Below are positions 5,600-55,695 of a stretch of DNA of 64,000 nucleotides, piece by piece; within the stretch, counting starts at the first letter, position 1; the number at the start of each line of letters is the position of its first letter. The notes under the pieces were generated by a model. That model was not told the origin of the DNA and searched no databases. It saw only the letters and a list, made by a program, of their open reading frames with translations. Both the position numbers and the translations under genes were made by a program. This DNA comes from Escherichia coli (GTDB lineage: Bacteria > Pseudomonadota > Gammaproteobacteria > Enterobacterales > Enterobacteriaceae): NCBI RefSeq assembly GCF_009931435.1, contig NZ_CP043414.1. The stretch is one strand, 5' to 3'.

Positions 5600-5681
5600 C
5601 CCAGAGGTATTGATAGGTGAAGTCAACTTCGGGTTGAGCACATGAATTACACCAGCCTGCGCAGATGCGCAGGTTTTTTTT
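5600..5681 (+). ncRNA. omrB: OmrB small RNA (OmpR-regulated, Hfq-dependent)
   Basis: Conserved 5' end cccagaggtattgat, 3' terminator hairpin cctgcgcagatgcgcagg plus T-run; tandem with omrA. Confidence 0.85.
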
Positions 5682-5796
5682 TGCCGGTCATCAATCTGTA
5701 ACAGTAACCGACAATTTACACACCTCGTTGCATTTCCCTTCATTCCTTTGCGTTTTATCGCTGGCGAAGAGTCGTCGTGCAGACCACAATCAAGAT

Positions 5797-5884
5797 CCCA
5801 GAGGTATTGATTGGTGAGATTATTCGGTACGCTCTTCGTACCCTGTCTCTTGCACCAACCTGCGCGGATGCGCAGGTTTTTTTT
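5797..5884 (+). ncRNA. omrA: OmrA small RNA
   Basis: Same conserved 5' end, terminator cctgcgcggatgcgcagg plus T8; 88 bp upstream of aas. Confidence 0.85.
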
Positions 5885-13453: not shown

Positions 13454-14143
13454 CTACTGGATCAGAAAATGACGGGCCAGCAGCGCACTGGTGAAATTCT
13501 TCTTCAAATAAAAGCCACGCGGCAGCGTCAAAATCCGTTCGCCCCGGGCACCAATGGCTTCGGTAAGCGCTTTCGCATTCGCTGCTTTCGGGCGTATCTG
13601 TAAATACTCCCCGTGACGAGCGGTGATCCGCTCAACCTGACCGAGAACAATCATATCCATTAATTCTTCCCAGTCTTCGCGCAGTTGCCGGTCTTCCTCT
13701 TCATTCGGGCTCCATAGCAATGGTGATCCTACGCGACGCTGCGCCAGCGGGATGCTACGTTCGCCTTCAACCGGTATCCACAGCACGCGTTTGAGCTTGT
13801 GGCGCACGTGGCTGGTTTCCCAGGTCACTCCACTATTGCCCGTTAATGGGGCAACACAAACGAATGTTGTTTCCAGCGGACGCCCAAGACTATCCACAGG
13901 AATAGTTTTAAGTTCCACACCCAGAGCAGCAAAATCTTGTTCTGGTTTACTCCCTGCACTGGCACCTAGCCAGATCTCCAGCAACACGCCGATCCAGCCC
14001 TTATCGCGTTTTAAATTCTCCGGCGTCACCAGCCCGGCAAGTGCCGCCAGTTCACCCAGTGTATAACCGGAAAGTTGCTGTGCTTGCGCTAACAACTGTG
14101 CTTCTGTTTCGGGAGGAGAAAGCAGTGGGCGAGGTTGGGACAT
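13454..14143 (-). CDS. mutH: DNA mismatch repair endonuclease MutH
   Basis: 229 aa; recognised sequence. Confidence 0.95.
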
Positions 14144-14299
14144 GTCATGATACCTTGGTTAAAAAACAAACAGCTGTTCTTTGCCGAATATTCGCAGTGT
14201 AACTTTTTCCACATGCGTTATTCAATTCTATGATTTATATTGCTTTTTAGATTGTCGGTAATCGAGTTGCGCAACACTGCAACGGGTTTTCCAAATCTG

Positions 14300-14700
14300 G
14301 TCACTGAAAATAAACAGGATCTTACACCATGTTATCCACAGAAAGCTGGGATAACTGTGAAAAACCTCCACTACTGTTTCCATTTACAGCCTTGACGTGC
14401 GACGAAACTCCAGTTTTTAGTGGTTCAGTGCTTAACTTAGTGGCACATTCTGTGGATAAATACGGCGTTGGTTGATCTTTCGCCAACCTGTAAATGAGAG
14501 GTGTGACCTGGGTCACGAATTACTCCTTTTTATTACTTAAATTACATGTAATGCATTGACTAGTAATGATTATTTTAAAGTGTCGATATCAGGCTTATTC
14601 AGAATGCTCCGGGTTTTCCCGTAGTAATTCCGTAGTTCTTCACAACTCTATCCACAGAAAAGGTGAATAAAAACGGCTATCCACCCCTTCCTCTGTTTAT
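14300..14700. promoter_or_regulatory. DnaA-box cluster in the mutH-rppH intergenic region, consistent with DARS2
   Basis: Perfect DnaA boxes TTATCCACA at 14332-14340 (+) and TGTGGATAA at 14451-14459 (box on minus strand); near-consensus CTATCCACA at 14648-14656; AT-rich 684-bp non-coding region. Confidence 0.5.
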
Positions 14701-14827
14701 AACTCTGCACATAACTGTGAGTTATTCAATTGTTATTAGTGTGTAATGCCCTGCAGAGAGTGGTTTACCGTCTTCATGGAGTATGAAACAATCATTCGTA
14801 TATAAAGCTTTATTTTGAGGTAGTCCG

Positions 14828-15358
14828 GTGATTGATGACGATGGCTACCGCCCAAACGTAGGTATCGTGATTTGTAATCGCCAGGGGCAGGTAATGTGGG
14901 CCCGGCGATTTGGTCAGCACTCCTGGCAATTTCCGCAAGGCGGAATTAACCCAGGAGAATCCGCAGAACAGGCGATGTACCGTGAATTGTTTGAAGAAGT
15001 AGGATTAAGCCGCAAAGACGTTCGAATCCTTGCTTCAACGCGTAACTGGTTGCGCTACAAATTACCGAAACGTTTGGTGCGTTGGGACACGAAGCCGGTT
15101 TGTATCGGCCAAAAACAAAAATGGTTTCTCTTGCAGCTGGTGAGCGGCGATGCAGAAATCAATATGCAAACCAGCAGTACACCAGAGTTTGATGGCTGGA
15201 GATGGGTAAGTTACTGGTATCCGGTCAGACAGGTGGTGTCATTTAAACGTGATGTCTACCGTAGGGTAATGAAAGAGTTCGCGAGTGTTGTGATGGCGCT
15301 GCAGGATAATACGCCAAAACCACAAAACGCATCTGCTTATCGACGTAAAAGAGGTTAA
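14828..15358 (+). CDS. rppH: RNA pyrophosphohydrolase (Nudix)
   Basis: 176 aa, Nudix box [22 protein letters not shown]; GTG start. Confidence 0.9.
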
Positions 15359-15370
15359 GTCACGCCAATT

Positions 15371-17617
15371 ATGCTCACTCGCCTGCGCGAAATAGTCGAA
15401 AAGGTAGCCAGCGCACCACGCCTGAATGAGGCGTTAAATATTCTGGTTACCGACATCTGTCTTGCGATGGATACCGAGGTCTGTTCGGTCTACCTGGCCG
15501 ATCATGACCGACGTTGTTACTACCTGATGGCGACCCGGGGGCTGAAAAAACCACGCGGTCGCACTGTAACGCTTGCGTTTGATGAAGGGATCGTCGGCCT
15601 GGTTGGCAGGCTGGCGGAACCGATAAACCTTGCAGATGCGCAAAAGCACCCCAGCTTCAAATACATCCCCTCCGTAAAAGAAGAACGTTTCCGCGCGTTT
15701 TTAGGCGTACCAATTATTCAACGTCGCCAGTTGCTTGGTGTACTGGTGGTACAGCAACGAGAGTTGCGCCAGTATGACGAAAGTGAAGAATCCTTCCTGG
15801 TGACGCTTGCCACCCAGATGGCAGCGATTCTTTCTCAGTCGCAGTTGACTGCCTTGTTTGGGCAATATCGCCAGACGCGAATCCGTGCATTACCGGCAGC
15901 GCCTGGTGTGGCGATTGCCGAAGGCTGGCAGGATGCCACGTTACCTTTAATGGAACAGGTGTATCAGGCATCAACGCTGGATCCGGCTCTGGAACGCGAA
16001 CGACTGACCGGGGCGCTGGAAGAAGCGGCAAACGAGTTTCGCCGCTACAGCAAACGCTTTGCCGCCGGTGCACAAAAAGAAACGGCGGCTATTTTCGATC
16101 TTTACTCGCACCTGCTTTCGGACACCCGGCTGCGTCGCGAATTGTTTGCCGAGGTTGATAAAGGCTCGGTGGCAGAGTGGGCGGTAAAAACGGTCATTGA
16201 AAAATTTGCCGAACAGTTTGCCGCGCTAAGCGATAACTATCTCAAAGAGCGGGCTGGCGATTTACGTGCGCTGGGTCAGCGATTGCTGTTTCATCTTGAT
16301 GACGCTAATCAAGGGCCGAACGCCTGGCCGGAACGTTTCATTCTGGTGGCAGATGAACTGTCAGCGACAACGCTTGCTGAGCTGCCCCAGGATCGCTTAG
16401 TCGGTGTTGTCGTGCGAGATGGCGCAGCCAACTCCCATGCTGCGATCATGGTACGTGCGCTGGGGATCCCTACCGTAATGGGCGCGGATATTCAGCCTTC
16501 GGTGCTGCATCGTCGGACGTTGATCGTCGATGGTTATCGCGGTGAATTGCTGGTCGATCCGGAGCCGGTACTGCTGCAAGAATATCAGCGGCTAATTAGT
16601 GAAGAGATTGAGCTTAGCCGTCTGGCGGAAGATGACGTCAATTTACCCGCCCAGTTAAAAAGCGGCGAGCGCATTAAAGTCATGCTCAATGCCGGTTTAA
16701 GCCCGGAACATGAACAAAAACTGGGCAGCCGTATTGATGGCATAGGACTTTATCGCACTGAAATCCCATTCATGTTGCAAAGTGGTTTTCCGTCGGAAGA
16801 AGAACAGGTGGCGCAGTATCAGGGGATGCTGCAAATGTTCAATGATAAACCCGTCACCTTGCGTACGCTGGATGTCGGAGCAGATAAGCAGCTGCCTTAC
16901 ATGCCGATCAGCGAAGAGAATCCATGCCTGGGTTGGCGTGGGATTCGCATTACGCTCGATCAGCCGGAGATCTTCTTGATTCAGGTGCGGGCGATGCTGC
17001 GTGCTAATGCCGCTACGGGCAACCTGAATATTCTGTTGCCGATGGTCACCAGCCTCGATGAAGTTGACGAAGCACGCCGCCTGATTGAACGTGCCGGACG
17101 TGAAGTCGAGGAGATGATCGGTTACGAAATTCCCAAACCACGTATCGGCATCATGCTTGAAGTGCCGTCAATGGTATTTATGCTGCCGCATCTGGCAAAG
17201 CGGGTCGATTTTATCTCTGTTGGCACCAACGATCTGACTCAATACATCCTGGCCGTTGATCGCAACAATACCCGGGTGGCGAACATTTATGACAGTCTTC
17301 ATCCTGCAATGTTACGAGCTCTGGCGATGATCGCTCGGGAAGCGGAAATACATGGTATCGATCTCCGTTTGTGCGGTGAAATGGCGGGCGATCCCATGTG
17401 CGTGGCAATCCTCATTGGGCTTGGGTATCGCCATCTGTCTATGAACGGACGTTCTGTAGCGCGCGTAAAATACCTGCTGCGGCGCATTGATTATGCCGAA
17501 GCAGAAAACCTTGCGCAGCGTAGTCTGGAAGCGCAACTGGCGACCGAAGTTCGCCATCAGGTTGCAGCCTTTATGGAGCGTCGCGGCATGGGCGGGTTGA
17601 TTCGCGGAGGGTTATAG
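15371..17617 (+). CDS. ptsP: Phosphoenolpyruvate-protein phosphotransferase EI-Ntr (GAF + EI domains)
   Basis: 748 aa; 13 bp downstream of rppH. Confidence 0.95.
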   Translation: MLTRLREIVEKVASAPRLNEALNILVTDICLAMDTEVCSVYLADHDRRCYYLMATRGLKKPRGRTVTLAFDEGIVGLVGRLAEPINLADAQKHPSFKYIPSVKEERFRAFLGVPIIQRRQLLGVLVVQQRELRQYDESEESFLVTLATQMAAILSQSQLTALFGQYRQTRIRALPAAPGVAIAEGWQDATLPLMEQVYQASTLDPALERERLTGALEEAANEFRRYSKRFAAGAQKETAAIFDLYSHLLSDTRLRRELFAEVDKGSVAEWAVKTVIEKFAEQFAALSDNYLKERAGDLRALGQRLLFHLDDANQGPNAWPERFILVADELSATTLAELPQDRLVGVVVRDGAANSHAAIMVRALGIPTVMGADIQPSVLHRRTLIVDGYRGELLVDPEPVLLQEYQRLISEEIELSRLAEDDVNLPAQLKSGERIKVMLNAGLSPEHEQKLGSRIDGIGLYRTEIPFMLQSGFPSEEEQVAQYQGMLQMFNDKPVTLRTLDVGADKQLPYMPISEENPCLGWRGIRITLDQPEIFLIQVRAMLRANAATGNLNILLPMVTSLDEVDEARRLIERAGREVEEMIGYEIPKPRIGIMLEVPSMVFMLPHLAKRVDFISVGTNDLTQYILAVDRNNTRVANIYDSLHPAMLRALAMIAREAEIHGIDLRLCGEMAGDPMCVAILIGLGYRHLSMNGRSVARVKYLLRRIDYAEAENLAQRSLEAQLATEVRHQVAAFMERRGMGGLIRGGL

Positions 17618-41788: not shown

Positions 41789-41865
<77 letters not shown>

Positions 41866-41898
41866 TCACCGTACTGCTTTACTTCATCAAATTTTGAT

Positions 41899-41975
<77 letters not shown>

Positions 41976-42008
41976 TCACCGTACTGCTTTACTTCATCAA
42001 ATTTTAAT

Positions 42009-42085
<77 letters not shown>

Positions 42086-46408: not shown

Positions 46409-46614
46409 AAAAAAAAGCACCGCAATTAGGCGGTGCTACATTAATCACTATGGACAGACAGGGTAAATGTACAGGAAGTGAAAAAAGGTAGCTTTGCTAC
46501 CATGGTCTGAATCGCAGACCAATTGCAAACACAACAACACAACATCACAACCGTAAGCCAAAAGTTCACCAGAACACGCATTCCGATAAAACTTTTCGTT
46601 CCGGCTCAGGAAGT
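46409..46614 (-). ncRNA. gcvB: GcvB small RNA (Hfq-dependent regulator of amino-acid transport)
   Basis: Minus-strand sequence begins acttcctgagccggaacgaaaag, contains the GU-rich region gttgtgatgttgtgttgttgtgtttg, ends in terminator hairpin agcaccgcctaattgcggtgct plus T8; divergent from gcvA. Confidence 0.85.
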
Positions 46615-54195: not shown

Positions 54196-55695
54196 ATGTC
54201 CGAAACATTTTTGCAAATGAAGCATATCACCAAACGCTTTCCTGGAGTGTTGGCGCTTAATGACGTGCAATTTACCCTACGCCGGGGCGAGGTTCATGCA
54301 TTATTAGGTGAAAATGGTGCAGGAAAATCTACATTAATGAAAATTTTGTCGGGGGTTTATCAACCTGATGAAGGCGAAATAATTTTTGAAGATAAATTAG
54401 TCTCATTTTCTGATCCGTTAAGTGCGCAAAACGTAGGTATTACTATTATTCACCAGGAATTTAATTTATTTCCCGAGCTTACAGTAGAAGAAAATATTTT
54501 TATCGGCAGGGAGTTTTGTAAAAAAAATCGCTGGCGTCTGGATGAGAAACAGCAACGCAAGGCGACGATTGAAATTTTGCAAAAATTAAATTTGGCGATC
54601 AAACCAGATACTCTGGTTGCCGACCTTACGGTAGCTCAACAACAGATGGTAGAAATTGCCAAGGCCATTTCGGTTAACGCCAGGATTCTCATTATGGATG
54701 AACCTACTGCGGCGTTAACAGAAACTGAAATTGAAAGCTTATTTCGCGTCACCCGGTTATTGAAAGAACAGGGGACCGGCATTGTGTATATATCCCACCG
54801 TCTGGAAGAGTTGGCGCTAATTGCCGACCGCGCGACTGTAATGCGTGATGGTCAGTACATCAGCACAGTAGATTATGAGTGCGTAAAAATCAGCGATCTG
54901 ATTGCCATGATGGTTGGTCGCGATTTAGGGAATATCTATCCCCGCCGCGAGGCCATACAGCAGCGGATGCCGGTTCTGGAGGTCAACGGACTGACGCGCA
55001 AAGGCGTACTGAACGATATTAATTTTACGCTTTATCGTGGCGAGATCCTCGGCTTTGCCGGACTGATGGGGGCAGGTCGTACTGAACTTGCGCGTGCGAT
55101 TTTTGGTGCGGACTCCATTGACAGCGGAACGCTAAAGTTAAATGGTAAGGAAACCGTTATTAAAGATATTTCGGATGCTATTCAGCAGGGAATTAGTTAC
55201 CTGACGGAAGACCGAAAAAAAGAAGGGTTGGCACTGAATTTATCTGTTGAACGAAATATTATGTTAGGAAATTACCCTGAGTATTCCGATCGTTTTGGGA
55301 ATGTCGATTCGCGTCGTTGCCAACAAACCAGTGAGGAACAGGTAAAAGCGTTAAGGATTAAAACGCCAAATCTTGAACAGGCTGCATTAAATCTAAGTGG
55401 AGGAAATCAGCAGAAAATTATAATTGCACGTTGGGTGTGTAAAGATACTGATATTTTAATCTTCGATGAACCCACTCGCGGCATTGATGTTGGCGCCAAA
55501 CTGGAAATCTATGAGTTAATGAATCGCCTGGTGGCAAAAGGGAAATCAATCATCATGATCTCCTCTGAATTGCCGGAGGTGTTAGGAATGTGCGACCGTA
55601 TTTTAGTGATGCGCAGTGGTCGAATTACTGGCGAACTTAGCGCAAATGAAGCGACACAAGAAAAAATCATGCAATACGCGACGTTAGAGGATTAA
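54196..55695 (+). CDS. Sugar ABC transporter ATP-binding protein with two NBDs (RbsA/MglA/XylG-like)
   Basis: 499 aa from the ATG at 54196 (RBS gaggaaag); Walker A GENGAGKST and a second NBD. Confidence 0.85.
   Translation: MSETFLQMKHITKRFPGVLALNDVQFTLRRGEVHALLGENGAGKSTLMKILSGVYQPDEGEIIFEDKLVSFSDPLSAQNVGITIIHQEFNLFPELTVEENIFIGREFCKKNRWRLDEKQQRKATIEILQKLNLAIKPDTLVADLTVAQQQMVEIAKAISVNARILIMDEPTAALTETEIESLFRVTRLLKEQGTGIVYISHRLEELALIADRATVMRDGQYISTVDYECVKISDLIAMMVGRDLGNIYPRREAIQQRMPVLEVNGLTRKGVLNDINFTLYRGEILGFAGLMGAGRTELARAIFGADSIDSGTLKLNGKETVIKDISDAIQQGISYLTEDRKKEGLALNLSVERNIMLGNYPEYSDRFGNVDSRRCQQTSEEQVKALRIKTPNLEQAALNLSGGNQQKIIIARWVCKDTDILIFDEPTRGIDVGAKLEIYELMNRLVAKGKSIIMISSELPEVLGMCDRILVMRSGRITGELSANEATQEKIMQYATLED

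Follow-up and report, generated by a model that had tools for sequence, protein, structure and literature searches.

The DnaA-box cluster between mutH and rppH in an Escherichia coli chromosome is almost certainly the DnaA-reactivating sequence DARS2

The window, i.e., the whole 64-kb stretch of DNA analysed here, is Escherichia coli chromosome. In its ORF listing, mutH and rppH lie on opposite strands and flank a gap of 684 bp (14144–14827); both the length and the flanks had been given in the preliminary description of the stretch and are borne out, and the RefSeq gene limits of MG1655 agree with them. That description had also called the gap non-coding. The gap and its neighbours are as described, but the gap is not free of annotation, as RefSeq places a small gene, ygdT, inside it. 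The mutH–rppH gap was matched in 5424 of the 5426 complete E. coli genomes. The reading frames of the locus are as follows.

13454–14143, minus strand: mutH (ORF listing)
14322–14516, minus strand: a 64-aa ORF with a GTG start, unannotated in RefSeq
14329–14475, plus strand: ygdT, 48 aa (RefSeq), extending from the 3-bp spacer before DnaA box VI to the 21-mer that carries the Fis sites FBS2-3
14828–15358, plus strand: rppH, with a GTG start at 14828 (ORF listing)
15371–17617, plus strand: ptsP (ORF listing)

The gap is the richest 684-bp stretch for DnaA boxes in the 64-kb window. If one mismatch at most is allowed, TTWTNCACA occurs in it 10 times, compared with a mean of 1.3 (sd 1.5) in the other 684-bp stretches of the 64 kb. 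In 1000 dinucleotide-preserving shuffles of the gap, the number of such matches was 2.4 ± 1.5, and none of the shuffles reached 10. Similarly, the gap has 4 exact matches, whereas the shuffles gave 0.14, and again none of the 1000 reached the observed number. The second-richest stretch of the window (~54250–55000, 8 hits) was judged to be a product of chance because every hit there is T-rich, carries one mismatch and lies within a 504-aa ORF.

Four of the boxes had been singled out beforehand. Direct reading of the sequence confirmed two perfect boxes in opposite orientation, one being TTATCCACA at 14332–14340 on the plus strand and the other, at 14451–14459, reading TGTGGATAA on the plus strand, i.e., TTATCCACA on the minus strand. 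It also confirmed a near-consensus box with one mismatch, CTATCCACA, at 14648–14656. The fourth, placed around 14677, exists as CTATCCACC, but it has two mismatches, bears no published name and is neither functional nor conserved; it is altered in E. albertii and in locus L003 of our alignments, and it already varies within Escherichia.

Could this cluster be DARS2, the second DnaA-reactivating sequence of E. coli? The gap aligns with that of MG1655 at equal length, colinearly and without a single indel, with 21 substitutions in 684 bp; hence, any MG1655 coordinate (NC_000913.3) equals 2983805 minus the window coordinate. The DARS2 primers of Kasho et al. 2014 (PMC4245941, supplementary Table S1), from the Katayama laboratory, were located in the window sequence, as were the independent deletion primers published by Frimodt-Moller et al. 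2015 (PMC4585315). Alignment to the published DARS2, which had been suggested as a check, thus gave exact positions for the primers and oligonucleotides. Published maps of DARS2 start at the rppH side and so follow the minus strand of the window (PMC4245941). The parts of the element, from the mutH side, are the following.

14239–14693, minus strand: full published DARS2 fragment, 455 bp, defined by primers MutH-4 (GAGGAAGGGGTGGATAGCC) and MutH-2 (ATTGCTTTTTAGGTTGCCG) (PMC4245941)
14261–14291: Fis site FBS6, non-essential (oligo FIS-4U/4L)
14306–14319: conserved block ATAAACAGGATCT before the box VI cluster, with a GATC at 14318
14320–14354, plus strand: box VI cluster, consisting of TCTTACACC, atg, TTATCCACA, gaaag and CTGGGATAA, with DnaA box VI itself at 14332–14340 (primers Ksh-34/35)
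14385–14399: a 15-mer, the invariant block TTTACAGCCTTGAC preceded by A/T (alignments)
14451–14459, minus strand: DnaA box V, perfect, TTATCCACA, adjoining FBS2-3 (primers Ksh-32/33)
14460–14480: essential 21-mer with FBS2-3, ATACGGCGTTGGTTGATCTTT, with a conserved GATC at 14474 (Delta-21 primers MutH-24/25)
14461–14693, minus strand: minimal active DARS2, the Delta-Right construct pOA67, with its edge taken from MutH-11 (PMC4245941)
14503–14533: Fis site FBS1, non-essential (oligo FIS-1U/1L)
14549–14577: IHF sites IBS1-2, two 13-mers, TAATGCATTGACT and AATGATTATTTTA, separated by agt (substitution primers Ksh-16/19)
14595–14603, plus strand: DnaA box IV, TTATTCAGA, one mismatch (substitution primers Ksh-30/31)
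14636–14670, minus strand: DARS2 core (deletion primers MutH-14/MutH-15 and MutH-9/MutH-10 flank 14636–14671)
14636–14644, plus strand: core box III, TTCTTCACA
14648–14656, plus strand: core box II, CTATCCACA
14662–14670, minus strand: core box I, TTATTCACC, facing box II
14677–14685, plus strand: CTATCCACC, the fourth box of the preliminary description, outside the core deletion
14694–14704: conserved TGTTTATAACT, directly outside the 455-bp fragment

Mapping of the primers shows that the two perfect boxes noticed beforehand are boxes VI and V, both of which lie outside the minimal active DARS2, and that the near-consensus box is core box II; core boxes I and III and box IV had been omitted. 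The nucleotide-exchange core is the imperfect box triplet at 14636–14670, and it is identical to that of MG1655 at 35 of 35 positions. The 3-bp spacing of the two IHF 13-mers is the one given in PMC4245941, and the centre of IBS1-2 is about midway between its partners, ~90 bp from the centre of the core and ~93 bp from that of the 21-mer. Read on the minus strand, TGTTTATAACT becomes TTATAAACA, a DnaA box with one mismatch oriented as box I. FBS1 contains a perfect inverted repeat, GTGAC-ctgg-GTCAC (14503–14516), which is present in E. coli and not conserved in other genera. The gap has just two GATC sites, at 14318 and 14474, both within a conserved GATCTT; a figure legend in PMC10380432 labels the latter, in FBS2-3, as a Dam site.

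These results indicate that the mutH–rppH DnaA-box cluster is, with near certainty, DARS2. The location reported for DARS2, between mutH and rppH (ygdP/nudH), matches the reading frames, the MG1655 annotation and the literature, and the locus is the ortholog of DARS2 in an E. coli strain, not merely a DARS2-like element. DARS2 at this position is an already known, well-characterised element, and the interpretation first placed on the DNA is supported. As the main regenerator of ATP-DnaA, DARS2 determines when the E. coli chromosome replicates; spotting it in the raw window amounts to correct annotation rather than discovery.

None of the 21 substitutions relative to MG1655 fall in DnaA boxes I–VI, and the segments 14256–14466 and 14592–14775 are identical in the two sequences. 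The differences lie in spacers, in FBS1, in one IHF 13-mer and in one Fis site of the 21-mer. The essential 21-mer is identical at 20 of 21 positions, with G for A at 14467, by which one of the overlapping Fis consensus matches falls from 5/6 to 4/6 specified positions. At 14570, T replaces A, and one IHF 13-mer goes from 12/13 to 11/13 of the consensus; T is the majority base of this column in 22 Enterobacterales, so MG1655 is the odd one out. A gap at least 99% identical to that of the window occurs in only 4 of the 5424 E. coli genomes. Divergence specific to the locus was considered for this rare DARS2 allele and rejected, because the flanking 5.8 kb are equally rare and have the same identity distribution; rarity is therefore a property of the lineage and not of DARS2.

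A motif scan for IHF and Fis sites, which had also been proposed, was uninformative for the latter. The IHF 13-mers are near consensus, with one mismatch at 14549–14561 (12/13) and two at 14565–14577 (11/13), where MG1655 has one. A perfect Fis consensus, GGTCACGAATTACTC, was found at 14511–14525 within FBS1. However, Fis consensus matches were not enriched in the gap (7 versus 7.9 expected), so the scan cannot discriminate here, and it is the published footprints, not the scan, that support the Fis sites.

How widely are these parts conserved? We compared 80 RppH-anchored loci, one genome per species, from Enterobacterales, Vibrionaceae and a few relatives. Of the 67 loci in which mutH and rppH are still neighbours, about 65 had the three-box core. 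In these relatives, with mutH upstream of rppH in divergent orientation, the core pattern was found with 2–4 mismatches at 24 specified positions; in 3 kb of coding DNA downstream, used as a control, nothing came closer than 7–10 mismatches. In most loci, 188–206 bp separate the core from the rppH start downstream of it; in Dickeya, the distance is 263 bp. No core was found within 2.5 kb in the loci without mutH upstream, namely those of Photorhabdus, Xenorhabdus, Proteus, Providencia, Morganella and Arsenophonus (Morganellaceae and Arsenophonus; L036, L040, L046, L048, L053, L056, L058–L060, L063 and L065). A Photorhabdus homologue of DARS2 is nevertheless listed in the literature, and these genomes may therefore carry the element at another place.

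Conservation was scored as the majority-base frequency in an alignment of 22 Enterobacterales. Boxes V and VI both scored 1.00, box V being invariant in all 22, followed by TGTTTATAACT at 14694–14704 (0.98, with 9 of 11 columns invariant), the 15-mer (0.92), the core (0.91, with 22 of 35 columns invariant), the box VI cluster (0.88) and the 21-mer (0.79). The IHF 13-mers scored 0.73 and 0.63, and their specified TAA....TGA positions were kept. FBS1 (0.48), FBS6 (0.45), box IV (0.43) and CTATCCACC near 14677 (0.42) were at background level. Of the published or proposed sub-sites, those under selection across Enterobacterales are thus the core, both perfect boxes (V and VI), the specified bases of the IHF sites and a portion of the 21-mer; box IV, FBS1, FBS6 and CTATCCACC are not.

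The same comparison bears on the reading frames in the gap. The ygdT frame is intact, at 48 aa, only in Escherichia; elsewhere its start codon is replaced by GGG, CAG, CTG, TAT, TAC or AGG, or a stop follows after 9, 11 or 17 codons. The DNA for its LSTE.WDN, FTALT and SVDK segments nevertheless stays conserved, because it makes up the box VI cluster, 15-mer and box V. As judged from these alignments, ygdT probably does not encode a conserved protein, the conservation being at the DNA level, and its annotation is probably an artefact of that conservation, although its translation in E. coli itself is possible. Doubt had been cast beforehand on the minus-strand ORF at 14322–14516; that ORF exists, and the doubt, a reasonable one, applies also to ygdT, the gene annotated on the plus strand. 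Neither ygdT nor the 64-aa ORF matched a Pfam or NCBIfam family, and a literature search for ygdT gave nothing useful, its one apparent match being a misspelling of YdgT. Scans of the gap for promoters returned one weak plus-strand site (14206–14234), no more than shuffles give, and a terminator scan of the gap found none.

Evidence that DnaA occupies the cluster in vivo comes from MG1655. DnaA ChIP-seq in that strain identified 16 bound regions, 3 of them at DARS2 (PMC11317965). The DARS2 peaks, at 2969124, 2969306 and 2969501, stand 78×, 199× and 213× over the control (PMC11317965) and convert to 14681, 14499 and 14304 of the window, beside the core, box V and box VI, respectively; the strongest of them is near the box VI cluster. 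A footnote of PMC11317965 names NC_000913.2, and our conversion uses NC_000913.3 numbering, which we infer to be the intended one, as the listed double-box sequences within 200 bp of the peaks fit only that. Boxes left unbound by DnaA had been named as evidence that would speak against DARS2; this objection fails, as the MG1655 peaks fall on the three box clusters. For the window allele, binding is expected from its near-identity to MG1655.

The mechanism that we propose for the window allele takes its steps from the literature on the MG1655 sequence (PMC4245941, PMC8682772, PMC11724364) and carries them over by near-identity. The requirement for IHF and Fis, the minimal region and the footprints of DARS2 are described in PMC4245941, the contribution of supercoiling and a Fis–DnaA contact in PMC11724364, and the nucleation on box V of ATP-DnaA oligomers that displace Fis, a negative feedback, in PMC8682772. 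ADP-DnaA would occupy core boxes I, II and III (14636–14670), where, since boxes I and II face each other, two DnaA molecules would be placed head-to-head via their AAA+ domains. IHF bound to IBS1-2 (14549–14577), a binding favoured by negative supercoiling, would bend the DNA sharply and so carry Fis at FBS2-3 (14460–14480) to the core-bound DnaA. ADP would then be released, and the apo-DnaA would leave the DNA and bind ATP, yielding initiation-competent ATP-DnaA before the next round of replication. Rising ATP-DnaA would in turn nucleate on box V (14451–14459), spread to the flanking weak boxes and evict Fis, turning DARS2 off. IHF- and Fis-dependent ADP release and regeneration of ATP-DnaA by the window allele are thus predicted from its identity to MG1655.

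Could the boxes instead serve chiefly as DnaA operators for divergent promoters of mutH and rppH (or of ygdT), and not in nucleotide exchange? The cluster is in a divergent promoter region, a fragment from it was isolated earlier as a high-affinity DnaA-binding 'mutH promoter' fragment (PMC5835720), and the conserved blocks by rppH (14757–14796) look promoter-like. On the other hand, box V, the 15-mer and the box VI cluster each keep their distance from the core to within 1–2 bp in ~50 species, whereas their distances to the gene starts vary, and published genetics and biochemistry show nucleotide exchange (PMC4245941). We therefore regard a chiefly operator function as unlikely; a transcriptional role secondary to nucleotide exchange is possible.

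The cluster might also be a sink like datA, titrating DnaA or promoting ATP hydrolysis, which is the opposite of what DARS2 does. Several DnaA boxes together with an IHF site are found at datA as well, and the very strong ChIP peaks are comparable to those of datA (PMC11317965). However, deletion of the core in MG1655 lowers ATP-DnaA and extra copies cause over-initiation (PMC4245941, PMC5835720), the reverse of what a sink would do, and boxes I and II lie head-to-head, which is the DARS signature. The published ATP-DnaA measurements refute a sink for MG1655, and for the window allele it is highly improbable. Least credible of all, and refuted by our analyses, is that the boxes arose by chance in AT-rich intergenic DNA (the gap is 61% A+T, the window 50%) or from coding constraint on ygdT, which is annotated across boxes VI to V, given that not one of 1000 shuffles of gap composition reached the observed counts, that the boxes are invariant in genera whose ygdT frame has lost its start or has stops, and that neither ORF matches a protein family.

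With the locus read as DARS2, its relation to the known elements can be set out. It shares with DARS2 of MG1655, whose literature reportedly includes Fujimitsu 2009 and Miyoshi 2021, its place, length, boxes I–VI, IBS1-2, FBS1-6 and the 21-mer layout, and it differs by the 21 substitutions of a rare lineage. DARS1, an element of ~100 bp in the bioD–uvrB gap, needs no IHF or Fis. Its three-box core, with boxes I and II oppositely oriented, resembles that of the window element, and in MG1655 the DARS1 core, TAATACACAtggTTATCCACAggaatAGTGGATAA, matches that of DARS2 at 24 of 35 positions. Unlike DARS1, the element of the window has a regulatory arm of the DARS2 type with IHF and Fis sites; identity with DARS1 was rejected, as the window locus is between mutH and rppH and DARS1 of MG1655 is a different sequence. 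datA is likewise a non-coding DnaA-box cluster with an IHF site, timed by IHF binding, but it promotes hydrolysis of DnaA-bound ATP through head-to-tail ATP-DnaA oligomers and has no Fis requirement. Similarly, oriC has DnaA boxes of both high and low affinity along with sites for IHF and Fis, and cooperative oligomerisation of ATP-DnaA starts there from a perfect box, as at box V. In contrast to oriC, the window element is without an AT-rich unwinding element or 13-mers and does not start replication.

The sole lead with some novelty concerns the right half of DARS2, which is strongly conserved and rigidly spaced. Boxes IV–VI are dispensable for stimulating initiation from plasmids (PMC4245941), yet DnaA is bound strongly at box VI in vivo (PMC11317965). 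The box VI cluster (14320–14354) is laid out like the DARS cores, in that 3 bp separate box VI from a preceding weak box and 5 bp separate it from an inverted weak box that follows. When the core pattern was searched with up to 5 mismatches, the 64 kb yielded only the core itself and the box VI cluster. The cluster is identical to the DARS2 core at 23 of 35 positions and to the DARS1 core, taken from MG1655, at 25 of 35. Furthermore, the box VI cluster and the 15-mer are as conserved as the core, whereas FBS1, FBS6 and box IV drift freely.

The spacing of these elements is equally constrained. The distance to the core was 185 ± 1 bp for box V in 52 species and 253 ± 1 bp, or about 24 helical turns, for the 15-mer in 49 species; for the box VI cluster, it was 316 bp, about 30 helical turns, in 43 of 53 loci (range 314–317; Ferrimonas 293). 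The block TTTACAGCCTTGAC is ~63 bp beyond the box VI cluster. By contrast, the distances of the same elements to the starts of mutH and rppH vary by tens of bp. Fixed internal distances combined with variable distances to the gene starts place the constraint within DARS2 itself.

What might the right half do? The 15-mer gave no fit to a sigma-70 promoter, either in the scan or by eye, no conserved RNA fold and no match to a known binding site, and no name for it was found in the DARS2 papers searched; nor did our literature search, which was incomplete, find a paper on the fixed spacing of the right half. RNAalifold, applied to four sub-regions on both strands, found no conserved structure; the only hairpin that it returned was rejected as a trivial product of the inverted TTATCC/GGATAA boxes in the box VI cluster. 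Tentatively, the right half (~14306–14460), dispensable as it is in plasmid assays, may be a functional, phase-locked module, a reading that we hold to be less probable than not. Such a module might let DnaA assemble at a second site, or bind another factor, and act only in the chromosomal context. The departure of IHF from DARS2 at initiation is stated to be unexplained (PMC10380432), and one possibility is that the module has a role in this timed release.

Two minor observations concern the surroundings of the element. The conserved blocks at 14757–14827, upstream of rppH, include, as read by eye, a possible extended −10 promoter, with TTTACC at 14764–14769, TG at 14784–14785 and AACAAT at 14787–14792, followed by a conserved GAGG ribosome-binding site. 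An Rfam scan of the whole window returned no match within the gap; elsewhere, it located OmrA and OmrB (5600–5884), three identical tRNA genes (41792–42085) and GcvB (46409–46614), all of them usual features of this chromosomal region in E. coli.
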